Source: Deltaproteobacteria bacterium
Lineage (GTDB): Bacteria; Desulfobacterota; Deferrisomatia; Deferrisomatales; BM512
DNA: 64,000 bases
Direction of reading: 5' to 3'
Assembly (NCBI GenBank): GCA_002869015.1
Contig: PKTT01000062.1
Coordinates: 26,257-90,256, forward strand
Positions within the stretch are counted from its first letter, which is position 1. Each line of letters starts with the position of its first letter. Below are positions 31,942 through 52,585 of this stretch, in pieces. The position numbers and the translations under genes are program-made. The notes beneath the pieces are model-generated. The model saw nothing but the letters and a program-made list of their open reading frames with translations, was not told the DNA's origin and did not search any database.

Positions 31942-32631
31942 ATGACAAAATCATCCAAAGCAAAAAGAGCTGTAATCGCCTGTGGAATTTTCGAGGTGGA
32001 AGTTGAGAGGCTCCTTAAAGGCCACGATTATATCTCAGTGACCTATTTGGAGCAGGGGCTACATGTAAAACCTGAGAAAATAGCTCCGCACATTCAGGAG
32101 ATAGTGGATGAAGCTGCCAAGTGGGCTGATGAAATAGTCCTCGGCTACGGCCTCTGCTCCAACGGTGTTGCAGGTGTAGTAGCGCCGGCGCAGGGGCTCA
32201 TAGTGCCTAAGGCACACGACTGCATCCCCCTCTTCTTAGGCTCTCTTGAGAAATACAAGGAGTCATCAACCGCCCACCCCGGCACTTACTACCTCAACTC
32301 TGGGTGGATAAAGGGCGAATTGGACCCCTTGGGAACCCTGGAAAAATATAAAGAGAGGCTCGACCCGGAGATAGCGGAGTGGGGCATTCAGGAGGAGATG
32401 AAACACTATACTCGTATAGCTTACATAGACGGCAACAATGGCAAAAGCGCCAAGGAGATCGAGCGCGCAAAGGAGAACGCTGAGTTTCTAGGCAAAGAGT
32501 TTCAGATCATAGAGGGTAGCGGCGACTACCTTGAAAAGCTGCTTTTCGGCCCCTACGATAGCGAGGAGTTTTTCCACATCGCACCGGGCGAGACTATAAC
32601 TCAGGATATCTATCTGGCTCAGCCTGATTAA
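31942..32631 (+). CDS. DUF1638 domain protein
   Basis: 229 aa. AVIACGIFEVEVE...VLGYGLCSNG...PKAHDCIPLFLGS pattern characteristic of DUF1638. Confidence 0.7.
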   Translation: MTKSSKAKRAVIACGIFEVEVERLLKGHDYISVTYLEQGLHVKPEKIAPHIQEIVDEAAKWADEIVLGYGLCSNGVAGVVAPAQGLIVPKAHDCIPLFLGSLEKYKESSTAHPGTYYLNSGWIKGELDPLGTLEKYKERLDPEIAEWGIQEEMKHYTRIAYIDGNNGKSAKEIERAKENAEFLGKEFQIIEGSGDYLEKLLFGPYDSEEFFHIAPGETITQDIYLAQPD

Positions 32632-32993
32632 GCCTTTACACTCTTTCGAGCCTTATACTTTGTTGCCTTGGATACCTTCTCCTCATCAAAATCATCATCC
32701 GATGAAGGGAGCGCCCCCTGGACTATTGAGCTAAGCGAATCAAATAATCTAGAGTTCTCGCCAAAAAGCCTCTTGAGGGAATGCAATGCCCTGCCAAGGG
32801 TGCGGTTTATTGCCGGCTGAAGAGCCTCTTTAAGGTCAGGCGAAAGGTCATCATATTGAGCCCGTAAATTGCTCACCCAATCTTCAAGGTACCTTTCCTC
32901 CACCCCATCTCGCTTGTATATAAAACCTTCCAGCGCTCCAGCAGCGGAAGCAAACTCATAGATGGCACCTTCTGAACCTTCATTTTTCATCAT
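32628..32993 (-). CDS. Hypothetical protein (121 aa), last gene of the sigma-54 regulator operon
   Basis: ORF in an operon context, 20 nt after the HAD gene. No recognised family. Basic C-terminal tail. Confidence 0.45.
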   Translation of the reverse strand: MMKNEGSEGAIYEFASAAGALEGFIYKRDGVEERYLEDWVSNLRAQYDDLSPDLKEALQPAINRTLGRALHSLKRLFGENSRLFDSLSSIVQGALPSSDDDFDEEKVSKATKYKARKSVKA

Positions 32994-33013
32994 CCAGCCT
33001 CCCCGGCGACATG

Positions 33014-33682
33014 TTAATTAAAATGTTTTGTAAGTTCTGAAATACTCTCAACGATGAGGTTTGCTCCCTCTTTTTCCAGCGTTCCCCTGGAATCTATCCC
33101 AGTCAGTACTCCAATAGTTTTCATACCGGCGGCATGACCCGCGCGAATATCGACATGCGAATCGCCAACGTAAACGCATACACTTGGTGGCATCCCAATC
33201 CTCCTGGCACCCTCAAGCAAAGGGTCCGGCGCCGGTTTCACGCGTGGCGCATCTTCGGTTGCCACCATAACCTTGAAGAAATCCGCCAACCCTTCACGCC
33301 TTAAGGCAAATAATTTTTTCTCCAAATATTTTCGCTGCGTCGTTGTGACAATGCCAAGCGCGATACCCAAATCGCGCAGATGCTTCAGGGATTTATCCGC
33401 CCCTGGTACCACCTTCACTTCATCCTTAAAGATATCGAGGGACTTGGCCCTTCCTACAGAGAGCAGCTCCTTAATCAACTCATCCTTACGGTACATTTCC
33501 CTTTCGGGGATCATCTTTTCCAGTATGGATGTGCCGGAGGCCATGAACTCGGCAACCTTCTCCCGTGGCGCCTGCGGAAGCCCGACAGCATCAAGCATTG
33601 AAGCCATCAGATCAAAGTAAGCCGGTATAGAATCAAGGAGGGTGCCGTCAAGGTCAAAGAGGACTGCGCGCACACCATCCAT
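33014..33682 (-). CDS. HAD-superfamily phosphatase (phosphoglycolate-phosphatase-like)
   Basis: 222 aa. Motif I VLFDLDGTLLDS, motif III K...., motif IV YVGDSHVDIRAG. Confidence 0.85.
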   Translation of the reverse strand: MDGVRAVLFDLDGTLLDSIPAYFDLMASMLDAVGLPQAPREKVAEFMASGTSILEKMIPEREMYRKDELIKELLSVGRAKSLDIFKDEVKVVPGADKSLKHLRDLGIALGIVTTTQRKYLEKKLFALRREGLADFFKVMVATEDAPRVKPAPDPLLEGARRIGMPPSVCVYVGDSHVDIRAGHAAGMKTIGVLTGIDSRGTLEKEGANLIVESISELTKHFN

Positions 33683-33687
33683 CTCCC

Positions 33688-34290
33688 CTACCCCTCAGCC
33701 TCATCGATCAAAGCCGCCGCCATCTCCTTTGCCCGCTCAGTAAAAAACCAGGGCTCGATTTTACCCTTTAACCATTTAAGGCAGGTTGAAGGCTCCATCC
33801 CTGCCCATCTGCGCATGAAATCGACGCCTGTGGAAGTGAAACGGTAAAGCTTGTCAGCATCCTTTACTATCTCATCCTCACTTGAGATTGAAGTCATCCG
33901 GCTATCATGGCCATTAATTATCTTTGAGACATGCTTGACCTCTTGGTCGCCAAAACCAAGCTCATCAAGGATTTTAGCGGCGATGCGTGCCCCCTCCTCT
34001 TCATGCTTTATCCTGAAAACATTGCCCTCAGGGTCGGCCATGAGAGATTGGGACATCTCTTCTGCTGTAAGCTCACTATAGCCTGTATCATGGAGAATCA
34101 CCGCAGCAAGGACTACACGCTCATCAACTTTAGCCCCCTCCAGCAGTTTAACTGCCAATGAGTATGCGATGAGCGTATGGACATCATTTTCGCGAACCAT
34201 AAGGTAGGGTTTTGCCCGTTCAAAAATATCTTTGAATACCCCCTTCGGGAGTGAAAGGGAGTTGCAACCATCTATTCTTTGCGTCGTCAT
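33688..34290 (-). CDS. HD-domain phosphohydrolase
   Basis: 200 aa. H...HD signature (HTLIAY...AVILHDTGY) and later DADKL. Paralog of 55554..56153. Confidence 0.75.
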   Translation of the reverse strand: MTTQRIDGCNSLSLPKGVFKDIFERAKPYLMVRENDVHTLIAYSLAVKLLEGAKVDERVVLAAVILHDTGYSELTAEEMSQSLMADPEGNVFRIKHEEEGARIAAKILDELGFGDQEVKHVSKIINGHDSRMTSISSEDEIVKDADKLYRFTSTGVDFMRRWAGMEPSTCLKWLKGKIEPWFFTERAKEMAAALIDEAEG

Positions 34291-34323
34291 AATATTTCCA
34301 AAAATAAAATTCAGATATACACG

Positions 34324-35718
34324 CTATCTGAAATCAGACCTTTCAAAGCCGTATTTCTTCATCTTCCGCTCAATGGTGCGACGTGACATCTGCATGGATT
34401 TAGCTACTTCTTTAATCTTTCCGTTGTGGCGCTCAAGCATGCGCAGGAGATAGCGTTGTTCATACTTCTCAACCACCCGCTCCAGCCCAAATCCGAAGGG
34501 CTCATCGGGCTCATCCACCTGCGTAATGACATTCTCAAAGATATTTTCACCAAGGGCCTCTTTTAAATGTGCAGGGCGTATCGTCCTACCCCTGCCCGTC
34601 GCGATAACGCTTTCAATGATATTCTCAAGTTCCCTGACGTTTCCTGGAAAATCGTGAAGCTGGAGGATTCGGGCCGCCTTCGGGCCTATTTTGGTGAAAT
34701 TTTTCCCATACTTCTCTGAGTACCGCCGCATAAACAGGTGCGCCAAAAGAGGAATATCGCTCTTTCTCTCACGCAATGGCGGCAAAACCACATGAACGAC
34801 TTTCAATCTGTAATAAAGGTCATTTCTGAAATTGCCTTTATTGACCTCTTCAAGGAGGTTCATGTTGGTCGCGGCGACAAACCTGACGTCGATCTCTCTT
34901 TCGACGGTCTCGCCTACACGCGTAACGCGTCTTTCCTGTAAAACTCTGAGAAGTTTTACTTGAAGGTGCAGCTCAAGCTCACCAATCTCATCTAGAAAAA
35001 GAGTCCCCCCATTTGCCGCTTCAAAATACCCTACGTGTTCACGCTCCGCCCCGGTAAAGGCCCCTTTAACGTGGCCAAAAAGCTCACTCTCTATAAGGTT
35101 TGGGGGAATTGCACCTAGATTTACAGCGATGAAGGGGCCTTTACTTCTAGGAGACTCGTCATGAAGTGCGTGAGCTAGAAGCTCCTTGCCCGTACCGGAC
35201 TCCCCCTCAATAAGCACTATTGCCTGCGTCTGGGCGGCGCGTGAGACTCTCTTTAAGAGCTTTGTCATTGAGGGGCTTCGGCCAAAGATACGGTGGCTAG
35301 AGTTGCCTACACGTTCGCGAAGCGCCTTTACCTCATCTCTTAGCTCCTTCATCTCCAAAGCTTTTTTTACCGCGTGGATTATCTCTTCAGGGAGCAAGGG
35401 CTTTCTCAGATAGTCAAAGGCCCCTATCTTCATAAGCTCAATTGCCGACTCAACAGATGCATGGGCCGTTATAACAATGACCTCTGTATCTGTATGGTCC
35501 TCCTTGACCTTACGCACCACATGCTCTCCGCCTATAGCGCCCAGCACCAAGTCAGTTACCACCAGGCCGAAGCTCTCCTTTTCAAGCTTTGTCATAGCAG
35601 CTTCAGCGGAGTCCACTGCCGTTACCTCGTAGCCCTCCGCAGAGAGGAGACGCTCCATAAGCGCGGACATTCCCGAATCATCTTCAACTATCAGAATTTT
35701 ATTGATATTACTCAGCAT
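34324..35718 (-). CDS. Sigma-54-dependent response regulator (NtrC family: REC + AAA+ + Fis HTH)
   Basis: 464 aa. REC domain (ILIVEDDSG...VVTDLVLG), Walker [15 protein letters not shown] motif and a C-terminal HTH. Confidence 0.9.
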
Positions 35719-35736
35719 CTCACTTCCATCTCATTG

Positions 35737-36894
35737 CTAATCCCACCAAGCCTCGTGCTGGTAATTTACGGGAACGCCATCAAGGCGCACTCTTACCCCG
35801 GTATTGTCCACTGGCAACATGTGCAGCTGACTGCTCAGACCCTTTTCTTCAATCCACTCTTTTAGAGGTTCCGGTTTCGAGCATATTGCAAATGTACCGG
35901 GACCAATTGAACTCATCGAAACAATCTCAGCGCCCAATCCACGGAAGCCATCAAGAATACCCGCTATATCCACTCCATCGCTCTCATGAAAATTGCATTC
36001 GGCTAACTTTGAACCCATTTTGGAGAGCCGGTAAATGCTCTCGCCAACAGCTTTGTAGTCGCCTCTTTTCATCGCCGGGAGCAGGTCCATCAAAACTATA
36101 TATGCCTTCTCTTTTCTAGTCTCGAGGTCAAGCTCCCTTGCCTGTCCAAGGAGTTTTTCAGCCTCATTCTCACCAGAGAAAAAACTTTTTGCGGTTTTTG
36201 GCACTACCAACAGCACCTTCATATTGTTTGGCAGTGGGGACCTCATAACTATATTGCAATCATCGGAGGCAACGACCATCCCGCCGTGTATTCCAACCAT
36301 TGCGCCGACGTTAGTCTCAAAACCTGGCACCAGGAGATTGTCGCCGTATGTGGCCTCCTCGCAGTAGTTGTAGGCTATGGACTTTCTTAGGTCGCTTAAA
36401 GTTAAAGGCCTACCGAAAAGTTCGTTCAAAGCCACCATAGTAGCGGTTATCACGCTTATGGAGGAACCTAGGCCAATGTGTTTATAGCCATGGTCCTCAA
36501 TCACCACTTTCATACCGACGTACTCCCCCACCATCGTTTGGAACATCTCGACCAGATGGCACCCGATGGATGCCCTCGAACCTGTGGCTGAGACTCCGAG
36601 GGCTTGGGTGAAGGCAATCTTTGCGCGGCTGTAGGTACCGACAGCAAAGCCGATACCTCCGCCACCCGGTATCCCAACATCGAACCGGTTCATGTCTATT
36701 ACGGAGGCATGGAGGCGCGCTGGCACCTCCACTTCGCAAACTGTGCCGACTCCATATGGCACCGTCTTCCTGACTGCGCCGCCCCAATGAGATGGGAATA
36801 TGAATTTTGATGGATCACCCGGCTTGAAGTGGGATACCCCTTGCGATTTTCGAGAGCCAGCGTCAGTCATGTTCCGCCCTTTTAAAGCACCCAT
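35737..36894 (-). CDS. GHMP-kinase-superfamily protein resembling beta-ribofuranosylaminobenzene-5'-phosphate synthase (COG1907-like)
   Basis: 385 aa. GHMP motif HIGLGSSISVITA. The N-terminal RLHASVIDMNRFDVGIPGGGGIGFAV resembles the beta-RFAP synthase signature. Family call is from motif memory only, and the start is uncertain (M1 or M9). Confidence 0.5.
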   Translation of the reverse strand: MGALKGRNMTDAGSRKSQGVSHFKPGDPSKFIFPSHWGGAVRKTVPYGVGTVCEVEVPARLHASVIDMNRFDVGIPGGGGIGFAVGTYSRAKIAFTQALGVSATGSRASIGCHLVEMFQTMVGEYVGMKVVIEDHGYKHIGLGSSISVITATMVALNELFGRPLTLSDLRKSIAYNYCEEATYGDNLLVPGFETNVGAMVGIHGGMVVASDDCNIVMRSPLPNNMKVLLVVPKTAKSFFSGENEAEKLLGQARELDLETRKEKAYIVLMDLLPAMKRGDYKAVGESIYRLSKMGSKLAECNFHESDGVDIAGILDGFRGLGAEIVSMSSIGPGTFAICSKPEPLKEWIEEKGLSSQLHMLPVDNTGVRVRLDGVPVNYQHEAWWD

Positions 36895-36977
36895 CGATTC
36901 ACATAAACCGTTAATAAGCCTAGCATATTTCTCTGTATTGTTTTAGGATTAATCGAACCCCTCCCACGGAAACAACC

Positions 36978-38132
36978 ATGGAAAAAAACACTCAGGGGAG
37001 TGCCTCATGTTCACTCTCCGACATAATCAACAATGACATTTTCAATGCCATTTTAGAGGGAAGCGCAGAGGGAATTTGCATTACCGATTCCCAAGACAAT
37101 GTCATAGCGTTTAACAAAGCCGCCGAAATTTTAACAGGTAGAAACGCCGGCGAAGTTTTGGGGTCAAGCTGCGAAAACGCCTTTCAGTGCTCTTCAACCG
37201 CCGGATGCTGCCTAAAACCTGGCGCACGCTCAGGGTTGTGGCCGGAACTTTCATGTAATGCGCTGCGCGCCGATGGCAAAGCGGTAACCTTTAGGCGCAG
37301 GTCACGGGTGATTCGCGACTCTGTTGGAAGGTTTATCGGCAACATCTCCTATTTCGCCGACATGTCCCTCAAAGAAACCCTCCAGAAGAAGATGGTTGTA
37401 TATGAAAGGATGGCGAGCCTCGGAGAGCTCTCCGCATCCATGGTCCATGAAATTGGCAACCCGGTATCCGTGATTCTCGGCTTTAGCAGAATCCTCGTCC
37501 AACAAGAGGGTGAAGACCCCGGCGGCGATATCCGCTCCAGAATTTTCAAAGAGGCAGAGCGTTGCAGGGAGGTCGTTGACCATTTATTGGATTATGCCCG
37601 CTCTGCATCAAGAGAACCCCAGAGGACGCCACTAGTATTAAAGTCAGTGGTTGACGAAACCCTGGATTTGCTTAGCTACAGGATGAAGCGCCAAGCCGTA
37701 AGCTGGGAAGTTCTCTGGGATGTCGAAAACGCAATCGTTAGCGCCGACAGGGGTGAGCTAAAGCAAGTCTTCCTCAACGTCCTTTTGAATGCTCTTAACG
37801 CCATGGATGAGGGGGGGGTCATCAGCATAAAGGGTGAAACCAAACGCAACCTGATAACGGTGGGGGGAGACTCCTTATCAAACCCACGGCGCAAAACAAA
37901 AGTTATCGAGAGCATAGCCGTATTCATAGAAGACGAGGGAAGCGGGTTGGGTGGTCTTGACCCTGAACGTTTTTTTGCGCCCTTCTTTTCCACAAAGGAG
38001 ACCGGCGGTGGCCTTGGGCTGCCCACATGCCGCAAGCTCCTTGACAAATTCGGCGGCACCATCCGCCTTGAGGAGAGGGCCAGCGGTGGCGCAAGGGTTA
38101 TAATCGAAATACCCGCTTGTCTGGATGGATAG
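36978..38132 (+). CDS. Cytoplasmic PAS-domain sensor histidine kinase
   Basis: 384 aa. PAS domain (ICITDSQDNVIAFNKAAEILTGRNAGEVLG), H-box SASMVHEIGNP and HATPase_c G-boxes (DEGSGLG, GGGLGL). Confidence 0.85.
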   Translation: MEKNTQGSASCSLSDIINNDIFNAILEGSAEGICITDSQDNVIAFNKAAEILTGRNAGEVLGSSCENAFQCSSTAGCCLKPGARSGLWPELSCNALRADGKAVTFRRRSRVIRDSVGRFIGNISYFADMSLKETLQKKMVVYERMASLGELSASMVHEIGNPVSVILGFSRILVQQEGEDPGGDIRSRIFKEAERCREVVDHLLDYARSASREPQRTPLVLKSVVDETLDLLSYRMKRQAVSWEVLWDVENAIVSADRGELKQVFLNVLLNALNAMDEGGVISIKGETKRNLITVGGDSLSNPRRKTKVIESIAVFIEDEGSGLGGLDPERFFAPFFSTKETGGGLGLPTCRKLLDKFGGTIRLEERASGGARVIIEIPACLDG

Positions 38133-38140: not shown

Positions 38141-38686
38141 TCAGGCCCTGAAAAGGCTTTTGCGAAGGGACCTTTTTACATCATTTACTATCTCTGGGTT
38201 GATGATTGGGGAGTCTTCACACCAACCCTGCCATGGGCCTAGCAGCTGCTCATAAGGTATTCCGCAACCTCTTGAATAAACCGCCCCAACGCCTGGAAAG
38301 TTCTCTTCGTTGACTCTCTTGGCGAGTGCCATAAGCTCGTCGCGCCTAGCTTTTGACTCAGTGTGGAAGATTACCGCAAATGTTTTATGCCCCCCGGCGC
38401 CCTTGCCGAATTTTCCGTAGACCTCCTCCCCGGGGAAGGTCTTGCTAAATAGGGTCAGCCAATCATAGCAATCGTTATAACTCTCAAGCGCAACCGTAAC
38501 TTTCCAACATTCAAGGGCTTCTTTTAGATGTATTCTCTTCACATCACCCCTGAGCTGCTCCCAAAGCCCCGTCATACAGGGGAGGCACCTTTTATTTAGC
38601 CTATCTTTTGTGCGCCGCATCAGGGGGTCGCTTTCAAAGCTGGTCCACCCCTCAAGTGAAGCGCGCCTTCCTAAATGGATTTCCAC
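38141..38686 (-). CDS. Hypothetical protein (start uncertain)
   Basis: 181-aa ORF from GTG. Internal ATG alternatives exist (MRRTKDRL, MTGLWEQL). No recognised family. Confidence 0.4.
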   Translation of the reverse strand: MEIHLGRRASLEGWTSFESDPLMRRTKDRLNKRCLPCMTGLWEQLRGDVKRIHLKEALECWKVTVALESYNDCYDWLTLFSKTFPGEEVYGKFGKGAGGHKTFAVIFHTESKARRDELMALAKRVNEENFPGVGAVYSRGCGIPYEQLLGPWQGWCEDSPIINPEIVNDVKRSLRKSLFRA

Positions 38687-38901
38687 TTGATTGAGTTAAT
38701 CCTACTTAACGAAGTTGAACTGAACTTTGAGCGCGTTAAGGGTTCCCTTCATCCTTATCATATTTTTCTCAATCGCGGGGTTCCCTCTGCCTACCTCAGC
38801 TAACGCGTCTATTTTGGCTGACACTTCGGCAATTGCTTCCCTTATCTTCTCTGCCTGCTCCTGAACCTTCATTTTATCAGCTCCGCATTAGTTCAAATTT
38901 T

Positions 38902-40236
38902 TTATTTTTTCCTAAGGTCTTTGAACCTCTTTGACTTGACCTCATATCGCGGGAGGGACCCATAGGGAACGACCTCTATCCCTATATTCAGCTGAGTCTT
39001 CAGCCTTAAAGTGGAGGAGAGCTTCCGCAAGAGCTCGTCACGCCCCTTACCTGTAAGCTCATCTTTCAATTCAACCCTCAGATCGATTCTGTCAAGGTCC
39101 CCCTTCTTGTCTATGGTCAGTTCAAATTCGCCGTCAATTTCATTGAAAGAGCGCACTACCTCTTCCACCGTCACCGGGGAGAAAAGAACCCCCTTGACCT
39201 TTGTAATATGATCTACGCGCCCGTGAACTCCCTTTTCAAGGACTCTCCAGGTACGTCCGCATCCACACTTCTCCTCGGACCATGCGGATACGTCTTTCGT
39301 GTCGAACCGTATGCACGGCTGTGCCCTCCGGTCAAAAGCACTGATCACTATGCGGCCAGGCACGCCGCTTTCAGTAACTGGCTTGTCGGAATCAAGCTCA
39401 AGAAGCTCGACAAGGAACATGGACTCAATTACGTGTAGTCCTTCCGGCTTATGGCGGCATTCAAATGACCATGCGCCAACTTCGGTCGCGCCTACATGGT
39501 CATGAACCGGGCAATTCCAGGCCTCCTCCATCCGCTTCTTCGTGGAAGGCACCAAGGCTCCAGGCTCACCGGCACAGAGAATTTTCTTTATGCCCCAGTC
39601 ATGGGGGTCTCCCTCAAGCTCTTTTTTTACCGTCTCCGCCATGCCAAGGACATAAGTAGGGGTCGCCATAAAGGCAGTAGCCTTAAGCTCTTTCATTTTG
39701 AGCAAGCGCTCCCTTGTAGCCAGCACGCCGCCAGGGACTACCTCACACCCTATCTTCTCACAGGCATAATGGCCCGCCCAATAAGCGACGAAGATATTGT
39801 AGCCAAATGGTATGAAAACCCGGTCCTCCGGCCTGAAGCCTTGCGCCCAGAGCACCGTCGCCCAACACTCGCTCCACCATTCCCAATCAGCCCATGTATC
39901 CGGCTGATATACAGGAGTGCCGGTAGTTCCGCTGGTTTGGTGAAATACCGTAACCTCATCTAACGGAACGCATAGGGTGTCGCCATAGGGGAAGGGCTCC
40001 ACATTCTGGCAGCGGTAGTCATCTTTTGTAAGCAGCGGAACTTTTGAGATATCCTCCCAGCTCTTCAGGTCCTCCGGGTGAAATGATGCCTCTTCAAATT
40101 TTCTCCGATAGAGGGGGCTTTTCTCATAGCCCCATTTTACAAGCTCCTTCATCTTTTCGAGCTGCATTTGACGGATAGCCCCCATATCCATCACTTCTAC
40201 CAGTGGGTTCCAATACTCGTCCGTTGATATTTTCAC
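38902..40236 (-). CDS. PaaK-type (phenylacetate-CoA ligase / F390 synthetase family) aryl-CoA ligase
   Basis: 444 aa. The FHQTSGTTGTPV motif and overall layout are those of the PaaK family. Last enzyme gene of the ppc/ubiDX operon. Confidence 0.8.
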   Translation of the reverse strand: MKISTDEYWNPLVEVMDMGAIRQMQLEKMKELVKWGYEKSPLYRRKFEEASFHPEDLKSWEDISKVPLLTKDDYRCQNVEPFPYGDTLCVPLDEVTVFHQTSGTTGTPVYQPDTWADWEWWSECWATVLWAQGFRPEDRVFIPFGYNIFVAYWAGHYACEKIGCEVVPGGVLATRERLLKMKELKATAFMATPTYVLGMAETVKKELEGDPHDWGIKKILCAGEPGALVPSTKKRMEEAWNCPVHDHVGATEVGAWSFECRHKPEGLHVIESMFLVELLELDSDKPVTESGVPGRIVISAFDRRAQPCIRFDTKDVSAWSEEKCGCGRTWRVLEKGVHGRVDHITKVKGVLFSPVTVEEVVRSFNEIDGEFELTIDKKGDLDRIDLRVELKDELTGKGRDELLRKLSSTLRLKTQLNIGIEVVPYGSLPRYEVKSKRFKDLRKK

Positions 40237-40282: not shown

Positions 40283-40879
40283 TTACCGCGCCTCGGCAGC
40301 AACGGATATATCGCTTCCCACCCAGCGACGGAAAAGGTTGTGCTCGATCTTCAGCGCGTCCAAAGCTTTGCCGACACTCTGATCGATTATGTCTTGCACC
40401 GTCTTTGGACGGTGATACATAGAGATCATAGGGGGCATGAGAATCGCGCCGTTGTCTGCGCAGCGGTTTAGTATCTCAAGGTGTCCTTTGTGCAGCGGCG
40501 TCTCCCTGAACATTATGACCAGATTTCTTCGCTCTTTCAGGGTCACGTCAGCAGCGCGCACGAGGAGGTTCTCATTGTAACAGTGAGCTATAGCTGAAGC
40601 GGTCTTCACCGAGCAGGGTGCGATAACCATCCCCTCAGTTATAAATGAACCGCTGGCGATCGAAGCCCCGACGTCATTAAAATCGTATGTGACGTCTGCC
40701 AAATCCATTACATCATCGACCTTCCAATCGGTCTCAAGGACTATGTTGCGCTTACTGGAATCTGAGATGACGAGGTGGGTCTCTACATCTTCTACGTCTT
40801 TTAACACCTCAAGAATTCTAATCCCGTATTGGGGACCTGTTGCGCCTGAGATGCCTACTACTATTCGTTTCTTTTTCAT
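40283..40879 (-). CDS. ubiX: UbiX-family flavin prenyltransferase
   Basis: 198 aa. MKKKRIVVGISGATGPQYGIRILEVL... is typical of UbiX/Pad1. ATGA overlap with the upstream UbiD gene. Confidence 0.9.
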   Translation of the reverse strand: MKKKRIVVGISGATGPQYGIRILEVLKDVEDVETHLVISDSSKRNIVLETDWKVDDVMDLADVTYDFNDVGASIASGSFITEGMVIAPCSVKTASAIAHCYNENLLVRAADVTLKERRNLVIMFRETPLHKGHLEILNRCADNGAILMPPMISMYHRPKTVQDIIDQSVGKALDALKIEHNLFRRWVGSDISVAAEAR

Positions 40880-42240
40880 GACCGGCCTCCAGAAATGATT
40901 GCGGCAGCCAAGTCAGCTGCATCGGGCTGGATTTTCACCCTTAGATGTTCATGGTTGTGTCCGTAGCCGGTTGCATCAATGCCCAGCTTGGAAGATGTAA
41001 AATCTTCCCCGGTAGATGGGTCTATCGGCGAACCTTTAAGCCCGGATAGTATGATAGTGTCTTCATCGGGACGATATCGCGTTGCCATAGACCATTCAAC
41101 TTCACGCGTCCTTGTGGGGTCTATATCTGAAGCAACCGCGACAGCTTTTTTTACCACTCCGGTATTTAGGAGCCGCTCTAGGAGAGCTCGTATCTGACTA
41201 CTCTCAGCCTTCGACAAGCTAACGACAACCGAGGAGCCAAAAGTGCCTCGTATTAAATGGAGGGTTTCGAAGAATTCAAACTCTCCCTCTACCTGAGAGG
41301 CGATAAATGTCTGCGCCACCTCCCTCAGGAGCACATCTCCCTCCGGGCCATCTGGAAGAAGTGCGTGGTAGATAGGGTTTTTGCGGTGGGTTATACGTGT
41401 AACAAATAAGCTCGGCGTGGTGGTAAAAAGCTGGCTGTAGCCACCTATCTCGCCAAGCGGCCCATCCTGCCTTTCGGTAGCGGGGTCTACATATCCTTCG
41501 AGCAAAAATTCAGCCTCTGCGGGCACCAATATCCCAGTCTCTTTAGCTCTGCCGACCTCTACCGCTTCCCCCCTTAAGCCGCCGGCTACTGAAAGTTTGT
41601 CTGCTCCGGCGGCCCCCTTGAAGGCGAAGGAGGCGAATATGAGCGGGGTCATGCCTATGACGACCGCCACTGGCATCCGCTCCCCACGCTCCTTGTATTT
41701 TGCGTATATCGACGAAAGCGGCGGGTTCAGGAGGGCGGCGCCAAGCTCTCGATCCCCCCTGAGTTCCATCCTGTGTATACCGCGCGCGGTCTCTCCCGTG
41801 TCAGGGTCGATTGTCTGGAGCAGCCCGGTGGTCACGAAGGGACCAGAGTCACCCTCGTAGTAGGTGAAAATTGGCATAACCTCCGAGAGGCTGGCCTCCG
41901 GCTCCAGCACTTCCTCCACGGGCATATTCTCAACTTCTTTTGGTTTAACAGGGCTCTTTAGGCGCTCCCTTAAAGCCCTGGTATATTCGCCACCCGGTGA
42001 TACCCCCATCTCCAAGGCTAGAACATCTTCGGAATAGACAAGGTTGCCCACCGCTGATACTTCATGCCCTTTGAGCGAGGTAAAGAGGACTGCTCCCTTA
42101 TCGAGAGCAGCCGCCCTTGAGAGGCACGCCGCGCATTCGAAGCGGGGGGCGAGAGTTTGTTCAATCTCGACCAACCGCTCCGTTAGCCGAAGTGCCTTTA
42201 ATGCCTCATTCAGGTTGCGAAAGGCCACCCCTACCTCCAC
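40876..42240 (-). CDS. UbiD-family (prFMN-dependent) decarboxylase/carboxylase, short type
   Basis: 454 aa with a UbiD core (ARGIHRMELRG..., EAEFLLEGYVDPATERQDGPLGEIGGY). The GTG start overlaps the ppcD-like stop by 10 nt. Confidence 0.85.
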   Translation of the reverse strand: MEVGVAFRNLNEALKALRLTERLVEIEQTLAPRFECAACLSRAAALDKGAVLFTSLKGHEVSAVGNLVYSEDVLALEMGVSPGGEYTRALRERLKSPVKPKEVENMPVEEVLEPEASLSEVMPIFTYYEGDSGPFVTTGLLQTIDPDTGETARGIHRMELRGDRELGAALLNPPLSSIYAKYKERGERMPVAVVIGMTPLIFASFAFKGAAGADKLSVAGGLRGEAVEVGRAKETGILVPAEAEFLLEGYVDPATERQDGPLGEIGGYSQLFTTTPSLFVTRITHRKNPIYHALLPDGPEGDVLLREVAQTFIASQVEGEFEFFETLHLIRGTFGSSVVVSLSKAESSQIRALLERLLNTGVVKKAVAVASDIDPTRTREVEWSMATRYRPDEDTIILSGLKGSPIDPSTGEDFTSSKLGIDATGYGHNHEHLRVKIQPDAADLAAAIISGGRS

Positions 42241-42488
42241 TCTTCGGGTATGGGATTAATCCACTCAATTATCTCTATAGACCACGGCTTGCCAACCCAC
42301 TGCCCGCGACCTAAACGGGGCCAGAGGCGATCGCCATACTTGTCCGGGTCGGAGGATGCGCGGGCCTTAACAACCTTGCAGCAGTACTTGGCCTTGGTTG
42401 AAGCCAGATCGCGAATTATCATGTCCTGCGCCTGGTCCTGAGTGAATTCATTCAAATCGGTTAAGATAAAAGTGTCGTATTCAGCCAT
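42231..42488 (-). CDS. ppcD: Small (about 10 kDa) subunit, PpcD-like by size and position
   Basis: 85 aa with no recognisable domain. Occupies the position of the 10-kDa delta subunit of phenylphosphate carboxylase between UbiD-like genes. Confidence 0.55.
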   Translation of the reverse strand: MAEYDTFILTDLNEFTQDQAQDMIIRDLASTKAKYCCKVVKARASSDPDKYGDRLWPRLGRGQWVGKPWSIEIIEWINPIPEEWR

Positions 42489-42511
42489 CTTTGGCCTCCA
42501 TTTCCTTTTAA

Positions 42512-43960
42512 TTAGTCCTTAAAGCCGTAGTTGGTCCAGTTACTGAGGACCTTCTCCTTCACGTCCTCGGGATAGACCTTGTTGAAGGAGACCATGATCG
42601 GCTTGTCGGACTCCTTCCAATGGCGCGGGAAGAGGCAATCGAAGAGCACCTTCGAGCCCTTTGACTTTTTCCGCTCCTCCGGGGATGCGAATGGGTTGAG
42701 CGGTGTACCAAGGTGGTTTTCGTAAAGATGAATACCATCAATTGGGTGGCACCTTGTTGAAATGGCGTGAATGACCTCATCCTTGTTGTAGATATCGGTC
42801 TCCTCATCGACGACCACCGCCATGTGGAACCAGGGCCCCAGCTTTGAGCCGAAGATAAGGTTTGCGATCTGCTGCGCTATGCCTGTGTAAACATGCGCCG
42901 TTCCAATTACCACCAAATGATGAGTTGATTCGGGCCACATGTAGACGCCGGTAATCGGAATGCCCTGGCTCTTTAAGAGCTTCTCCATCTCAAGACCAAG
43001 GGAGAAGGACCTGAGGAGCTGCCCCTCATCTGTAGGTACACCCATATTAGAGAGCGGCATGATGGGCTTTTTGCGGTAAGTTATGCAGCGAACCCTGTAG
43101 ACCGTGCGGGGCTCTCTCGGGGAGGTGCGGTAACCTGTGTACTCACCAAAGGGAGCTTCCTCAAGCTCGATCCCTGGGAGGATATCGCCTTCGATGATAA
43201 TCTCTGCGTGGGCAGGCACATAGAGGTCGCTGGTCTCGCACTTGACCATCTCGACGCCCTCACCCATAAGCATTCCGCAGAACTCGTCTTCGGGGATTGA
43301 CGCAGGCGCGCAAGCCGCGATGCCCGCGAGCGGGTCCATTCCGATAACCGTCGCAAAGGGCATCGGCTCGTTCCTCGGCACATGCTTGTAGTGGAACATT
43401 TTGCCCATATCGGAGAATGGCAGCACGGGGCCGACCATCGTCTTCTCGTCAAAGACCATTTGGCGGTACATACCCCAATTTATGTCCTGGGTATCGGGGT
43501 CTTTACCGACTATCATATGCCAGGTGCTTAGATAGCGGCCGCCGTCACCGCCATGAACCATGGGGGCGGGCAGGTCGAAGAGATTGACGTCATCGCCGGT
43601 GATTACTACCTCTTTACAGGGAGCATCTGCGCGGTCAACGATGACGGGAGGATAGGATTTGCCGCTCTCTGTACGCTCAAGGTAAGCAGCGCATATTTCC
43701 GGAATAGGCGTATCGGGGGGAAGCCCGAGTGAAATGGCAAGCTTACGATAGGTTGCCAGTGGCGCGCCAAAAGCCTCGAAGCCTTCGTAATCCTTGATAT
43801 TCTTAAAGTAGGGCGAGGGGCCCTTTATCTCGCATACGCGGCGCACGATGGCGCCCATCTCCATGTCCCAGTCGACCTCCTGCTCCACGGTGACCAGGTC
43901 ACCAGCTTCGTCAAGTGCTTTAATGAACTCTCGGTTGTCTTTGTAATATTTGTAAGGCAT
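42512..43960 (-). CDS. ppcA: UbiD-family large subunit of phenylphosphate-carboxylase-type enzyme (alpha/beta assignment tentative)
   Basis: 482 aa with a UbiD fold (GGRYLSTWHMIVGKDPDT..., AEIIIEGDILPGIELEEAPFGEYTGY). Synteny matches ppcBCAD. Confidence 0.75.
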   Translation of the reverse strand: MPYKYYKDNREFIKALDEAGDLVTVEQEVDWDMEMGAIVRRVCEIKGPSPYFKNIKDYEGFEAFGAPLATYRKLAISLGLPPDTPIPEICAAYLERTESGKSYPPVIVDRADAPCKEVVITGDDVNLFDLPAPMVHGGDGGRYLSTWHMIVGKDPDTQDINWGMYRQMVFDEKTMVGPVLPFSDMGKMFHYKHVPRNEPMPFATVIGMDPLAGIAACAPASIPEDEFCGMLMGEGVEMVKCETSDLYVPAHAEIIIEGDILPGIELEEAPFGEYTGYRTSPREPRTVYRVRCITYRKKPIMPLSNMGVPTDEGQLLRSFSLGLEMEKLLKSQGIPITGVYMWPESTHHLVVIGTAHVYTGIAQQIANLIFGSKLGPWFHMAVVVDEETDIYNKDEVIHAISTRCHPIDGIHLYENHLGTPLNPFASPEERKKSKGSKVLFDCLFPRHWKESDKPIMVSFNKVYPEDVKEKVLSNWTNYGFKD

Positions 43961-43978
43961 TCGTCGCTCCTTTTTCCT

Positions 43979-44521
43979 CTAGCCCCAGCCCTTGTTTCCG
44001 ACCTTGTCTACCAGCGGTTTCCATTTGCCCTGCGCGCGCAAGATAAACTCGCCAAGCTCTCGCAGGACGCCCTCTCCACCCTTACGGGTAGTCACGTAAT
44101 GGGATATCTCTTTGACCTCGGGGACTGCGTTGGCGGGAGCAACCGCAAAACCGACAAGCCGCATCACTCCCATATCGATAATTTCGTCGCCAACAAAGCA
44201 GACCTCTTCGGCGGTTATTCCCATCTCTTCCATAATCTCTTTACACTTCGCGGCTTTGTCCTTGGCCTGGTAAAAGCGCTTTACGCCTATCTCCTCACAA
44301 CGAACCGCGACTGTCTTGGATTTACGGGTGATCATCGAGACCTCTATACCCATCATCATGAGCATGTTGGCTCCGAAACCGTCGTCGTGGCTGAAGGTCT
44401 GGAACTTTACGCCTTCGTCGTTGTAGAGGATGTGTCCGCTTGTCAAGACGCCGTGCACATCCAGGATGACAATTTTTATTTTTGATGCCTTTTCAATCGC
44501 TTCATTCTGGTCGTAAACCAT
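43979..44521 (-). CDS. ppcC: KdsC-like HAD phosphatase subunit (PpcC-like, gamma)
   Basis: 180 aa with close KdsC-type layout (IKIVILDVHGVLTSG..., VCFVGDEIIDMGVMRLVGFAVAPANA, GGEGVLRELGEFILRAQGK). Motif I reads DVH rather than DVD. Confidence 0.75.
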   Translation of the reverse strand: MVYDQNEAIEKASKIKIVILDVHGVLTSGHILYNDEGVKFQTFSHDDGFGANMLMMMGIEVSMITRKSKTVAVRCEEIGVKRFYQAKDKAAKCKEIMEEMGITAEEVCFVGDEIIDMGVMRLVGFAVAPANAVPEVKEISHYVTTRKGGEGVLRELGEFILRAQGKWKPLVDKVGNKGWG

Positions 44522-44544
44522 CTTTATCTCCTCTTGCCGGCGGC

Positions 44545-45957
44545 TTAATCCAGGCCAAGCTCTTCCCAGCGGCTTTTTATGTTCTCAAGAACCTCTTGGC
44601 TCATCTCAACCTTGACCGGCTTGTCCTCCCACTCGAAGGGGATCGTTGCGTCCATGATGATTCTAGAGGTGATGAATTTGTTCTCTTTATCGTGCAGGGC
44701 TGGGTCAAGAGGTGTAGAACGGCCCCTGTTGATTATCTGGGTGGAGCGCTCTGGGTCATAACGCGTTGCCAACGCCCACCAGACGCGCGGCAGGTCATCG
44801 GCGGCGATGTCATCATCGACGATGATGAGACCTTTGAGACCATAAGTGCAGGTATTTGAGGCTATAACCGCAGCGGCAACTTGGTTGGAGTGGCCCGGAT
44901 ACATCTGCTTAAGTGAAACAATCGCCCAGAAGCGTCCGCAAGCTTCGGGGGGCATGTAAACTGACTGTATGCCCTTGATCCCCATGCGAGTGAGTTCCGT
45001 CCACAGAGTTGCGTTGCGAACGAATGCAAGCATCATGTGGTTGTCGTTGACGGGGCGGCCGACCGAGGCGGCGAGCAGGATAGGGTCATTTCGGTGGTAA
45101 ATGCGCTTAACCTCAATGGCTGGCTTATCTACCTGCTTATAAATCTCCTCGGTGTAGTAACCGGTGTATTCGCCGAAGGGACCTTCGCTGCGGAGGTTGT
45201 CGCCGTCAATGTATCCCTCGAGGACGAATTCCGCGGTGGCGGGTATCGGCAATCCGGTAAGAGGGGCTGTGACTACTTCGACCGGCTCGCCGCGCAAAGT
45301 ACCGACGACATCGTACTCATCGGCGTTCTCAACCATTGCGCTGCCTGCGAGCATAAGGAGAGGATCACACCCGACTACCAGGCAGATGGGCATCTTCTCG
45401 CCTTTTTTCCGATACTTCTGAAGGATGCGGTCTCCGCGCTTGCCCTTCAGTATCTGGGCGCCAACGGTCTTTGCGTCGAGGACCTGGCTTCTGTAGGTGC
45501 CCAGGTTGATCTCACCGGTTTCAGGATCCTTGACCACCATGAAGCAAGCAGTACCGATATACCTTCCGCCATCCTTCTCATAGAACTTGGGGGCGGGGAG
45601 CTTATAGATATCAATATCCTGCTCTTCAATCACATTCTCAAAAATGGGGCCGGTCTCGACCTGTTTTTTGGGGATAATCTCGCCAATGGAAAGCTTCATC
45701 CATTCGTAGCTTATCTCAGTCATGGTCATGTCGGCGGGTTTACCGAGACACATGGCAAGGCGCTTAGTGTTTGAATACGCGCCAAACATCACGCTGCCGA
45801 TACAGCCCTTTACATTCTCAAAGAGCATGGATGGGCCATCTCGCTCCTCAACCAACTTGGCTATGTGGGACATCTCGAGGTCCCAATCGACCTCTGCCGT
45901 CACCCTCTTCAAGTCACCTTTCGATTCACACAAACCGATAAAATCCCTAAGGTCCAT
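44545..45957 (-). CDS. ppcB: UbiD-family large subunit of phenylphosphate-carboxylase-type enzyme (alpha/beta assignment tentative)
   Basis: 470 aa with a UbiD fold (GGRYIGTACFMVVKDPETGEINLGTYR, AEFVLEGYIDGDNLRSEGPFGEYTGYY). First gene of the operon. Confidence 0.75.
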   Translation of the reverse strand: MDLRDFIGLCESKGDLKRVTAEVDWDLEMSHIAKLVEERDGPSMLFENVKGCIGSVMFGAYSNTKRLAMCLGKPADMTMTEISYEWMKLSIGEIIPKKQVETGPIFENVIEEQDIDIYKLPAPKFYEKDGGRYIGTACFMVVKDPETGEINLGTYRSQVLDAKTVGAQILKGKRGDRILQKYRKKGEKMPICLVVGCDPLLMLAGSAMVENADEYDVVGTLRGEPVEVVTAPLTGLPIPATAEFVLEGYIDGDNLRSEGPFGEYTGYYTEEIYKQVDKPAIEVKRIYHRNDPILLAASVGRPVNDNHMMLAFVRNATLWTELTRMGIKGIQSVYMPPEACGRFWAIVSLKQMYPGHSNQVAAAVIASNTCTYGLKGLIIVDDDIAADDLPRVWWALATRYDPERSTQIINRGRSTPLDPALHDKENKFITSRIIMDATIPFEWEDKPVKVEMSQEVLENIKSRWEELGLD

Positions 45958-46092: not shown

Positions 46093-46992
46093 TTGCTTAT
46101 GATAAACCTCAACCAACTGCGAGTCTTCCACGAAGCAGCCAAGTGCCAGAACTTCTCTGAGGCTGCCAGGAATCTATGCGTAACCCAGCCCGCCGTCACA
46201 GGCCAGATACGCTCTTTGGAAGAATCTTTGGAGATAAGGTTATTCAAAAAACGCGGGAGAAAGATGCTCCTCTCCGAAGCAGGAGCGGTTCTCTTTAGCC
46301 TTGCAACAAAAGTTTTCGACCTTGAGCAGGAGATGGAGCAGGTTATCGCAGAGATGCACGAGTTAAAACGAGGCATCCTAAAGGTTGGAACCACAAAGAC
46401 CTACGCCCGCTACCTTATGCCCTCTTTGATCTCAAAGTTCAGAAAAAAACACCCGGATATTAAAGTTATCCTGGATGAAGGCAGCTCGATGGAGATAACG
46501 TCCAGTCTCTTGGACCTTCGTAATGAGCTGGCGGTGGTAGCGGCGCACGAGGAGATTCCCGGCATATCGACCATACCCTTTCGAGAGGAGCCGGTAAGGT
46601 TGGTTGTAGCCAATGAGCACCCTTTCGCAAAGAAGGGTACTATCGAGTTTAGCGAGCTGGCTGGGCAATTCATAATTCTAAAAGAGCAGCAATCGAGTAC
46701 GCACCAAATTGTTCAGGAAGCTTTTACCGAGCATGGCTTGACCCCTAACGTGCTGGTTGAGACCAGTAACGTCGAGTTTATCAAGGAGACAGTTGAACGC
46801 GGAGAGGGGGTTGCCTTTCTGGTCTGGTCATCCATAGAGAAAGAGATCAACGCGCAGAAGCTGAAGGCCATAGAGATAAAGGGGTGTCACCTTTCGCTCC
46901 AGGTCGTAATATGCTTTCTGGAGGAGGGCGGACTCTCACCGGCGGCCAAGGCCTTCCTCAATATTTTGAAGGAGGCTTGCGAGACCGCTTAG
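46093..46992 (+). CDS. LysR family transcriptional regulator
   Basis: 299 aa. N-terminal HTH (LNQLRVFHEAAKCQNFSEAARNLCVTQPAVTGQIRSLEESL). Divergent from the ppc operon. Confidence 0.9.
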   Translation: MLMINLNQLRVFHEAAKCQNFSEAARNLCVTQPAVTGQIRSLEESLEIRLFKKRGRKMLLSEAGAVLFSLATKVFDLEQEMEQVIAEMHELKRGILKVGTTKTYARYLMPSLISKFRKKHPDIKVILDEGSSMEITSSLLDLRNELAVVAAHEEIPGISTIPFREEPVRLVVANEHPFAKKGTIEFSELAGQFIILKEQQSSTHQIVQEAFTEHGLTPNVLVETSNVEFIKETVERGEGVAFLVWSSIEKEINAQKLKAIEIKGCHLSLQVVICFLEEGGLSPAAKAFLNILKEACETA

Positions 46993-48041: not shown

Positions 48042-48066
48042 ATCTTTTTTCTCCCGAGAAAAACAA

Positions 48067-48090
48067 TCGGGCCCTCCAAAGAGGGCCCGA
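48067..48090 (-). terminator. Rho-independent terminator after the pps operon (hairpin usable on both strands)
   Basis: TCGGGCCCTC-CAAA-GAGGGCCCGA. On the minus strand it is followed by TTGTTTTTCT and then directly by the RBS of the ribK-HAD gene. Confidence 0.6.
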
Positions 48091-48122
48091 CTTTTTACGT
48101 GCAAACTAACGCATCAAAAACA

Positions 48123-48623
48123 TTACTCTTTCATCTCCGAGAAGACGGCATTCTCCATAGCCGCCATCTCCTCTTTCTCTCCTTCGAGCCACTCATAGGT
48201 AAAGGGCTTGGCGGTAACTCCAGGAAAGGATTGGTCCCTTGCACCCAAAAGCTCCATCTCGTAGACCATCATTTCACTTGGCTTTACAGCCTCAAGGCTA
48301 TCCTTGACTTTCTTGGCCTTGCCTTTTACCAGATAAGCAAGGTTACCATTGCCGATTATATGAACCCCTGCGAGGCCCGAGGCATTGATGTTGACAGCCG
48401 CGGTGCCTTTGGAGTCAACGGCAAACCTCAGACGCTTAGAGTCCATAGCAACTGCCCATGTATATGCTGAACTTGGGTAACCATCTGCGCCAGCAGTCAG
48501 AAGCAAGGCGGGTGCTCCAGGCTGAAGAAAACTGACTAAATTTTCGGGCATCTCTTTTAACACACCGCTCATTTCCTTACTCCTTCTATGCTTATCTATG
48601 CATTCATCGCTTAACCATCTCAT
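48123..48623 (-). CDS. Pyridoxamine-5'-phosphate-oxidase-like (FMN-binding split-barrel) protein in the ppsC position
   Basis: 166 aa. ATGA overlap with ppsB (alternative start MSGVLK at 48572). ...PALLLTAGADGYPSSAYTWAVAMDSKRLRFAVDSKGTAAVNINASGLAGVHIIG... looks like the PNPOx-like family. No CBS-domain pattern. Confidence 0.5.
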   Translation of the reverse strand: MRWLSDECIDKHRRSKEMSGVLKEMPENLVSFLQPGAPALLLTAGADGYPSSAYTWAVAMDSKRLRFAVDSKGTAAVNINASGLAGVHIIGNGNLAYLVKGKAKKVKDSLEAVKPSEMMVYEMELLGARDQSFPGVTAKPFTYEWLEGEKEEMAAMENAVFSEMKE

Positions 48624-49750: not shown

Positions 49751-49753
49751 TTC

Positions 49754-51610: not shown

Positions 51611-51675
51611 AGGTTTTTAAGACTTAGTATGATTTAGCGTTTGGTAATGGTTTTAAAAAATAAGTATTAATAACG

Positions 51676-52469: not shown

Positions 52470-52585
52470 CTCTAGTGATAACAACGTTTGCGCAATAGTT
52501 TTTCCTATCCAGACAAGGTTTTTACGCATAAATGCGTCACCGGTGTCGCAGGTCGGCCTTTTATTTTAGAATGCTGTTTTATATT

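Follow-up and report, generated by a model that had tools for sequence, protein, structure and literature searches.

Beta-ribofuranosylaminobenzene-5'-phosphate (beta-RFAP) synthases (MptG) and the C-nucleotide synthase ForT are the characterised GHMP-fold enzymes closest to the protein described here. The archaeal beta-RFAP synthase uses 4-hydroxybenzoate, as a preliminary description of the present locus had noted, and was named RHP synthase (PMC8183095). The essential aspartate of these enzymes is D19 of MTH0830, and the strand-1 arginine is R19 of ForT (residue roles: PMC6787355, PMC8183095). In ForT the ligands of the 5'-phosphate of phosphoribosyl pyrophosphate (PRPP) are R135, S139, S142 and T106, which mutagenesis shows to be essential (PMC8183095). 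Anaerobic phenol catabolism in Aromatoleum aromaticum is controlled by the one-component sigma-54 activator PheR (PMC10715001). No literature was found that links GHMP, sugar kinase or beta-RFAP synthase genes to anaerobic phenol or phenylphosphate carboxylase clusters, and the word 'kinase' is absent from the paper on the phenol cluster of D. anilini.

The gene in question encodes a GHMP-fold protein in a stretch of 64,000 nt of contig PKTT01000062.1 from a Deltaproteobacteria bacterium, referred to as the window. Open reading frames (ORFs) of the window were scored with Pfam and NCBIfam; judged by its predicted genes, the window is an anaerobic aromatic-degradation island. What is new in it is best described as an undescribed sister family of MptG and ForT inside a two-component sigma-54 module that also holds an orphan protein. 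It is proposed, with a probability of about 0.3, that within the module the GHMP enzyme would act on a phenolic intermediate and give a phosphorylated or phosphoribosylated product, either a cue or an intermediate.

A conserved regulatory module

Five minus-strand genes and a divergent histidine kinase gene were found at the coordinates, on the strands and with the domains given for them in the preliminary description (Table 1), and the GLGSS motif named there is present in the GHMP protein. The public gene call of this protein begins 8 codons later, at 36870. The five minus-strand genes are separated by spacers of 18, 33, 5 and 20 bp, and no terminator-like site above chance was found within the operon, which fits a single transcription unit. 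The catalytic motifs of the HAD phosphatase (HAD1) and the HD phosphohydrolase (HD1) are intact. HD1 is a paralogue, at 35% identity, of a second HD protein of the window (HD2). Convergent with the end of the operon, at 30164-32631 (+), are genes for a RACo-type corrinoid reductive activase (2Fe-2S and ASKHA) and then a DUF1638 protein, with no obvious link to phenol metabolism.

The locus was compared with 13 other loci of the same clade of GHMP proteins, clade A: twelve (L005-L016) belong to genomes of Deferrisomatales and Thermodesulfobacteriota, and one (L168) to a vent metagenome. Within the limits of each contig, all 13 share one gene order: (aryl-CoA ligase)-(56-62-aa ORF)-U181, read towards a convergent PAS kinase gene, and then, divergent from the latter, GHMP-(porin)-sigma-54 regulator. 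The module stands directly downstream of ppc/UbiX genes or of pps genes. An aromatic-compound porin is encoded between the GHMP and regulator genes in three loci, which fits an uptake-and-sensing operon. Homologues of HD1, HAD1 and the 121-aa protein U121 follow the regulator gene in none of the 13 loci, and an HD homologue was seen near the module in L007 only. What is conserved is the regulatory module; the five-gene operon is not. Conservation of the five-gene neighbourhood, which the preliminary description had named as a check, was not found, the HD, HAD and 121-aa genes being confined to the window, and a conserved five-gene pathway was rejected for this reason. The placement of a regulator between enzymes, singled out earlier as unusual, is real; it is explained otherwise, by the membership of the GHMP gene in a conserved kinase/regulator module.

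The same comparison bears on the side route suggested in the preliminary description, in which PRPP and 4-hydroxy- or 4-aminobenzoate would be condensed with loss of CO2 and the C-riboside dephosphorylated by the HD and HAD proteins, for salvage, for detoxification or as a secondary product. The nearest characterised relatives catalyse exactly such a condensation (PMC8183095), a 4-hydroxybenzoate-forming carboxylase is encoded alongside, and both hydrolases have intact motifs. However, there is no conserved synthase-phosphatase pathway, because HD, HAD and U121 are absent from 13/13 other clade-A loci, and the invariant partners are regulators, not hydrolases. The route would moreover reverse an energetically costly carboxylation, and the cradle for the PRPP 5'-phosphate is not conserved. 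C-ribosylation and HD/HAD dephosphorylation did not hold up as a unit, and the side route is regarded as quite unlikely.

The orphan protein U181 has a constant place between the CoA ligase and PAS kinase genes and is as rare as clade A itself (10 clusters among 5.8 billion proteins). Its conserved cysteines lie in a CLPC motif and at C60 and C141. An AlphaFold model of U181 (predicted local distance difference test, pLDDT, 90) had no significant match in the PDB; the best E was 0.026, with a faint ferredoxin/PII-like resemblance. The unannotated 56-aa ORF directly 3' of the PaaK-type CoA ligase gene has the motif PA[IV]E[KR]N..RM.GTL and is kept in six other clade-A loci. A scan of the JGI metagenome collection for more members of clade A gave none, only relatives at 35-41% identity. 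The module is carried by a cultured organism, Deferrisoma palaeochoriense, and can therefore be tested.

All features of an NtrC-type two-component system are present: a receiver, an AAA+ domain with GAFTGA and a helix-turn-helix domain in the regulator, HisKA and HATPase_c in the kinase, and a -24/-12 promoter with upstream sites. The palindrome pattern TGCGACA-N4-TGTCGCA, with at most 3 mismatches, occurs 7 times where 1.9 occurrences are expected, and none of 100 shuffles reached this count. A scan of the whole window with the sigma-54 consensus was not enriched (30 matches, 29 expected), and use was made only of the site that is paired with palindromes and kept in relatives. In L013 and L168 the same palindrome is followed about 80 bp later by GGCACA-N4-CTTGCT, ahead of the operon of CoA ligase, small ORF and U181. 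Palindromes also occur in the kinase-GHMP spacer of L007, L009, L013 and L168, and in the last two this spacer has an additional, weaker -24/-12-like element that faces the GHMP gene. The regulator most likely binds the palindromes. Its most likely targets are sigma-54 promoters, that of the pps-like operon in the window and that of the aryl-CoA ligase-U181 operon in relatives; possibly it also activates its own GHMP-regulator operon in relatives. The promoters and palindromes on pathway operons of the window, L013 and L168 point to control of phenol activation, and the module appears to control phenol activation, the thioesterification of 4-hydroxybenzoate and, in some genomes, itself.

Family placement of the GHMP protein

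Assignment to the beta-RFAP synthases, as made in the preliminary description, stands in part. They are the closest characterised family, by profile score, by hhalign and with ForT as the top structure. Both curated cut-offs were missed (NF040726, beta-RFAP synthase, 66.3 bits with a cut-off of 328; TIGR00144, 54.8 with a cut-off of 113.5), and the protein differs from ForT at the 5'-phosphate site. These two are nevertheless its best-scoring family models. The kinase equivalogs were all missed as well, homoserine kinase at 34 and 30.6 bits (cut-offs 194 and 168) and mevalonate kinase at 20.4 bits (cut-off 403), and the profile comparison with ordinary kinases that had been suggested earlier came out on the side of beta-RFAP synthase. 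Across all clades of the GHMP family the kinase models gave 20-37 bits and beta-RFAP synthase 45-85 bits. An ordinary sugar or amino-acid kinase was rejected on these scores, far under the cut-offs and under those of beta-RFAP synthase. A genuine MptG that serves a methanopterin pathway was also rejected for the window and the related loci: the cut-offs were failed, and the check for methanopterin/tetrahydromethanopterin (H4MPT) genes found none among the proteins of the 64-kb window and none in the clade-A loci.

By sequence, the best match among solved structures is ForT (family profile 48 bits, E 5e-12), followed by homoserine kinase (40 bits). An AlphaFold model of the protein (pLDDT 89.6, predicted template modelling score 0.90) had 204 PDB matches at E <= 0.001, and those listed are all GHMP-family enzymes. 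ForT was the top Foldseek match (E 1e-18, template modelling scores 0.63/0.73), with homoserine kinase and mevalonate pyrophosphate decarboxylase close behind. Azospirillum genes recovered by tblastn of plasmids served as the reference for genuine MptG (162.5 bits on TIGR00144); they sit inside an fhc/mtdB/mch/fae H4MPT cluster, with a HisA/HisF-like barrel gene nearby. In hhalign the GHMP family matched Azospirillum MptG with a probability of 98.9% (E 1.4e-17, 301 columns, 23% identity). The N-terminal resemblance to beta-RFAP synthase that had been claimed is borne out by this genuine enzyme, since PARLHASVIDMN of the window corresponds to PARLHLGFLDMN of Azospirillum MptG, with P-A-R-L-H-A-S-V-I-D-M-N in the former and P-A-R-L-H-L-G-F-L-D-M-N in the latter.

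Invariant positions of the alignment, MptG included, are P58, R60, H62, D67, H139-I-G-L-G-S144, E244, S329, G331 and P332. The conserved N-terminal region thus has the essential aspartate (D67) and the strand-1 arginine (R60); the equivalent of R26 is shifted, R70 lying 3 residues past the aspartate and not 7. ForT R19, H99, K263 and E210/E211 have counterparts in R60, H139, K296 and E244. The H-x-G-x-G-S phosphate loop, the holder of the PRPP pyrophosphate, is present; it is also found in ATP-dependent kinases and is non-discriminating. The middle third has an insertion of about 12 residues with a nearly invariant N176-x-x-E179-E180 (N-Y-C-E-E), which MptG lacks, and the GHMP family reads G-F-E193-T194-N195-V-G at the place of G-A-R-S-G-I-G in MptG. 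The segment of insertion and E-T-N did not align with ForT. In homoserine kinase 4P52 the segments aligned with N-Y-C-E179-E180 and F-E193-T-N-V-G are E-G-E and H-A-D-N-V-A, respectively, taken as its putative Mg2+ and substrate motifs. By its sequence the GHMP protein is a member of an undescribed sister family of MptG/RHP synthase and ForT, homologous to that family and outside it. The co-substrate is not readable from the sequence: PRPP may well be used, at a little under even odds, ATP is only slightly less likely, and a reaction that uses neither of the two is improbable.

A word-indexed search with the window protein found only 71 related clusters. An exhaustive profile search gave 2,398 (representatives at 50% identity) with E <= 0.001, 150 of them below 1e-30. 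Diverse representatives of the family (10/10) miss the beta-RFAP cut-offs, and by the profiles the family is a large group next to MptG that is still uncharacterised. Members of clade A are 47-55% identical to the window protein, those of a Firmicute clade about 39%. Across 31 diverse members 24 columns are invariant; clade A and the Firmicute clade agree at 34 key positions, most of which are also kept in a Methanomicrobiales clade. Such strict conservation suggests an enzyme rather than a relic, and the GHMP gene is predicted to encode a catalytically competent enzyme.

In a Desulfobacterales clade (L074 10001-11011; P0069-P0071, P0088, P0099) the GLGS loop is replaced by V-P-F-D-C-T-P-E and PGGGG is kept; this clade without a P-loop is a probable pseudo-enzyme. 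It has the look of an inactive relative, and clade A is unlike it. These observations matter for the idea that the GHMP-fold protein is a non-catalytic sensor, which would bind an aromatic inducer (and a nucleotide) and modulate the kinase by protein-protein contact. A sensor of this fold is known in yeast, where Gal3p acts on Gal80p, and the place of the GHMP gene between kinase and regulator genes is invariant. Yet none of the putative catalytic and P-loop residues varies, and all agree with those of clades found in non-regulatory contexts; the truly degenerate clade (P0069-P0071), with its P-loop lost, illustrates how a relic looks. A purely sensory role is highly improbable.

The Methanomicrobiales clade comprises 676 clusters from genera across the order, labelled 'GHMP kinase' at NCBI and 'beta-RFAP synthase' at JGI. 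In 67 of the Methanomicrobiales loci (L017-L084, L095-L164) a DUF2148 Fe-S protein gene lies upstream, and in Methanospirillum (L039, 9309-10927) it overlaps the GHMP gene by 4 nt; nothing relevant was found in the literature on DUF2148. A homologue search for canonical MptG in Methanomicrobiales listed only the paralogue clade, and second matches in the loci examined were gene fragments. If the order is without canonical MptG, the GHMP-family clade there would be the RFAP/RHP synthase. The best solved relative of the archaeal clade by sequence is IspE kinase.

In Firmicutes and some metagenomic loci the GHMP gene heads a cassette with genes for a TrpF-like isomerase, a Zn-dependent dehydrogenase and a DhnA-type (LsrF/ADH-synthase-like) aldolase. 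It was found in Desulfoscipio, Syntrophothermus and metagenomic relatives (L001, L003, L090-L092; e.g. L001 10001-13773). The aldolase scored 258 bits for LsrF (cut-off 297) and 237 for the ADH-synthase subfamily (cut-off 241). The cassette looks like an uncharacterised pathway, to judge by these assignments. A TrpF-like neighbour gene occurs in 11 loci. Another clade adjoins PfkB kinases and CHAT/NACHT proteins (incl. L165 and L167). Distant relatives (P0089, P0116, P0120, P0126, P0156, P0171, P0187) are fused to other domains, an adenylate-kinase-like domain in 5 of the 10 sampled, a PrnB-like domain in 2 of the 10, where HEPN/Toprim domains also occur, and a methyltransferase in another case. 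The fusions and the PfkB/CHAT/NACHT neighbours give hints of nucleotide-like products, possibly in conflict or defence systems. Taken together, the partners of the family act on phosphoribosyl, nucleotide-like or aromatic substrates, which lends circumstantial support to phosphoribosyl chemistry.

These data also bear on an ATP-dependent small-molecule kinase, which would retain the ancestral GHMP chemistry, phosphorylate a hydroxyl of a phenolic or sugar-like metabolite and be an ordinary member of the regulon with no signalling. In the sequence alignment E179/E180 fall on the Mg-binding Glu of homoserine kinase and E193-T194-N195 on its H-A-D-N substrate motif, and MptG has neither; the P-loop GLGSS is as in kinases, and the structures of homoserine kinase and mevalonate pyrophosphate decarboxylase score nearly as well as ForT. 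The relationship of the archaeal clade to IspE and the resemblance of the Firmicute cassette (kinase-like protein, isomerase, dehydrogenase, LsrF-like aldolase) to a phosphosugar catabolic route point the same way. The profile scores, lower for kinases than for beta-RFAP synthase in all clades, argue against it; the PpsA/B-like genes already provide for the phosphorylation of phenol, and the TrpF-like and nucleoside monophosphate kinase-like partners in relatives suit phosphoribosyl products at least as well. Such a kinase is possible, and only slightly less probable than the function proposed here.

Proposed function and the aromatic-degradation island

In the proposed function, the substrate would be a phenolic metabolite of the pathway, either 4-hydroxybenzoate, the substrate type of the nearest relatives, or phenol. 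The product would be a charged, phosphoribosylated or phosphorylated derivative, which may be the cytoplasmic signal that the PAS kinase reads, or else an early intermediate of the pathway. The PAS kinase and the NtrC-type regulator would then switch on the sigma-54 promoters of phenol activation. In the window only, the HD and HAD phosphohydrolases, as lineage-specific additions, may hydrolyse the resulting phosphoester.

Several observations weigh against this proposal. The window's own 83-bp kinase-GHMP spacer has no palindrome and no sigma-54 element. ForT R135, S139, S142 and T106 have no clear counterparts in the GHMP family, in an alignment that is uncertain by about 1 residue, and clade A has Ile or Val in place of T106. 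The insertion and the E-T-N motif, which both align with homoserine kinase, would favour ATP chemistry. Co-transcription with the regulator gene is no proof of signalling, and the protein may be no more than a pathway enzyme under regulation. Direct ligand binding is common among PAS kinases for aromatic compounds. Methanomicrobiales and Firmicutes have nearly identical active-site residues in proteins whose genes have quite other neighbours, so the substrate may not be specific to phenol metabolism.

A narrower version of the proposal is doubtful. It has a PRPP-driven C- or O-ribosylation of 4-hydroxybenzoate or phenol, with the ribosyl-phenol 5'-phosphate as a second messenger that is read by the PAS kinase (with U181). 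The sigma-54 circuit would in this way sense a membrane-permeant toxic substrate via an enzymatically trapped, nucleotide-like derivative. By extension, the Methanomicrobiales clade would be an unrecognised RHP/RFAP-type synthase.

Should phenol or 4-hydroxybenzoate prove to be its substrate, the enzyme would bring a step or signal not described so far into anaerobic phenol degradation, which is regarded as biochemically well mapped, and would define the chemistry of the large uncharacterised GHMP group (about 2,400 representatives), including the Methanomicrobiales-wide clade. A family with both MptG-like and kinase-like features may show how PRPP-dependent C-glycoside synthases originated from ATP-dependent kinases, and could yield new biocatalysts for C-nucleoside-type chemistry. 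The module of kinase, enzyme, regulator and U181 may represent a new kind of aromatic-compound sensor. As a lead that is interesting and well defined, the GHMP enzyme appears to be a good candidate for biochemical study.

The features of the window are listed in Table 1. The carboxylation genes that the preliminary description had placed next door to the operon are present, with PpcA and PpcB above their cut-offs, together with PpsA/B-like genes. A Phenol_MetA_deg porin and two LysR regulators are also encoded in the window. The window proteins that were scanned include no 4-hydroxybenzoyl-CoA reductase of the xanthine-oxidase family.

The riboflavin kinase-HAD fusion, the PNPOx-like protein and UbiX suggest that a supply of flavin mononucleotide (FMN), perhaps also of dimethylallyl monophosphate (DMAP) or of prenylated FMN maturation, for the UbiD-type carboxylase may be encoded within the island of this strict anaerobe. 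It could be argued that the GHMP protein and the HD and HAD phosphohydrolases belong to this supply, giving DMAP (or serving synthesis or maturation of prenylated FMN) for UbiX and four UbiD-type subunits. Flavin and cofactor genes abound in the island, two HD proteins among them, and the source of DMAP is unsettled in most bacteria. This explanation is considered very improbable: in L013 and L168 the module lies downstream of pps and CoA ligase genes, without UbiX or UbiD in the stretch examined, Firmicute and archaeal members never adjoin UbiX/UbiD, similarity to isoprenoid kinases does not rise above 20 bits, and conservation of the GHMP gene does not extend to HD and HAD.

Table 1. Genes and presumed regulatory sites of the window (positions on the 64,000-nt stretch; scores in bits)
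Feature	Position	Strand	Remarks
GHMP-fold enzyme, 385 aa, clade A	35737..36894	-	GHMP_kinases_N 29.5 bits (cut-off 22.3); G141-L-G-S-S145
NtrC-type sigma-54 response regulator	34324..35718	-	Response_reg, Sigma54_activat (AAA+), HTH_8 (Fis-type); GAFTGA at residue 219
HD-domain phosphohydrolase HD1	33688..34290	-	two HD dyads; window-specific operon addition
HAD-IA phosphatase HAD1	33014..33682	-	HAD_2 124 bits; DLDGT motif; phosphoglycolate-phosphatase/PpaX-like, under cut-offs; window-specific
U121, 121-aa protein	32628..32993	-	without Pfam/NCBIfam family match; window-specific
Soluble PAS histidine kinase	36978..38132	+	divergent from GHMP gene; PAS (one), HisKA, HATPase_c; H-box H157
U181, 181-aa Cys-containing orphan	38141..38686	-	last gene of carboxylase/ligase operon; convergent with kinase
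Conserved 56-aa ORF between CoA ligase and U181	38702..38872	-	homologues in L005, L009, L013, L014, L015, L168
PaaK-type aryl-CoA ligase	38902..40236	-	presumed 4-hydroxybenzoate-CoA ligase; Pfam/NCBIfam; 71-75% identity in clade-A loci
Phenylphosphate carboxylase cluster	40283..45957	-	PpcB beta, delta-like HAD, PpcA alpha, gamma, third UbiD paralogue, UbiX
PpcB beta	44545-45957	-	637 bits (cut-off 469)
Delta-like HAD	43979-44521	-	delta is best match, under cut-off (162, cut-off 282)
PpcA alpha	42512-43960	-	704 bits (cut-off 565)
Ppc gamma	42231-42488	-	Pfam 46.6 bits (cut-off 25)
Third UbiD paralogue	40876-42240	-	member of carboxylase cluster
UbiX	40283-40879	-	member of carboxylase cluster
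U226-PpsA-PpsB-PNPOx-RFK/HAD operon	46989..52356	-	pps-like; presumed target operon
U226	51676-52356	-	first gene of pps-like operon
PpsA-like dikinase subunit	49754-51610	-	pps-like operon
PpsB-like dikinase subunit	48620-49750	-	pps-like operon
PNPOx-like flavin-binding protein	48123-48623	-	pps-like operon
CTP-type riboflavin kinase (RFK; archaeal-type, DUF120) fused to HAD_2	46989-48104	-	best model of HAD_2 part is pyrophosphatase PpaX
Sigma-54 -24/-12 element GGGCACACCTTTTGCT	52454..52469	-	about 100 bp upstream of U226-PpsA-PpsB-PNPOx-RFK/HAD operon
Two palindromes, TGCGTCACCGGTGTCGCA and TGCGACAGGGTTGTCGCA	52533..52614	.	64 bp apart; presumed regulator enhancer sites; precede -24/-12 element
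Fourth UbiD paralogue	54148-55449	-	preceded by HD2 (55554-56153)

Elsewhere in the window, a Bam-type class II benzoyl-CoA reductase cluster at 3675-19049 (-) encodes an AFOR-type BamB, HdrD-, HdrA- and NuoF-like subunits and a molybdopterin oxidoreductase, and also carries genes for an aryl-CoA ligase, an IclR regulator and a TRAP (tripartite ATP-independent periplasmic) binding protein. A Cus-type heavy-metal efflux system lies at 22483-29380 (+), with OEP, HlyD/HMBD and a 1169-aa RND (resistance-nodulation-division) pump. The right end of the window, at 58750-63975 (-), encodes a 1741-aa protein with about 10 cadherin/Big_9 repeats; the regional G+C is 0.60-0.62, compared with about 0.51.

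Comparison with known systems

With beta-RFAP/RHP synthase (MptG; MJ1427, MTH0830) the window protein shares the GHMP fold, P-A-R-L-H-x4-D-M-N, the H-x-G-L-G-S loop and the S-x-G-P motif III. Of the two natural substrates of the known enzymes, 4-hydroxy- and 4-aminobenzoate, the first is also what the carboxylase encoded beside the module makes. Unlike MptG, the window protein has an N-terminal extension of about 50 residues, the 12-residue insertion and E-T-N for R-S-G, at about 23% identity, and its gene lies in a two-component module of a phenol-degradation island, without an H4MPT gene context.

The C-nucleotide synthases ForT and PyfQ (PDB 6YQQ, 8AOZ, 8AP0) give the best structural match, and the counterparts of R19, H99, K263 and E210/E211 are shared with them. 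They differ in that the middle third of the window protein cannot be aligned with ForT, the 5'-phosphate ligands are unrecognisable in it, and there is no natural-product cluster around its gene. GHMP kinases (homoserine, mevalonate, IspE, galacto-kinase) have in common with the window protein the fold and the GLGSS loop, and by sequence alignment it has a putative acidic pair at their Mg2+ site and an acidic residue at their catalytic-base/substrate position, whereas its N- and C-terminal thirds are closer to MptG and ForT than to any kinase.

The regulatory side is most readily compared with the PheR system, which also has sigma-54-dependent activation of phenylphosphate synthase and carboxylase genes. 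PheR, which responds to phenol, is a single ligand-binding activator; the window instead has a soluble PAS kinase, an NtrC-type regulator and two invariant proteins, the GHMP-like enzyme and U181.

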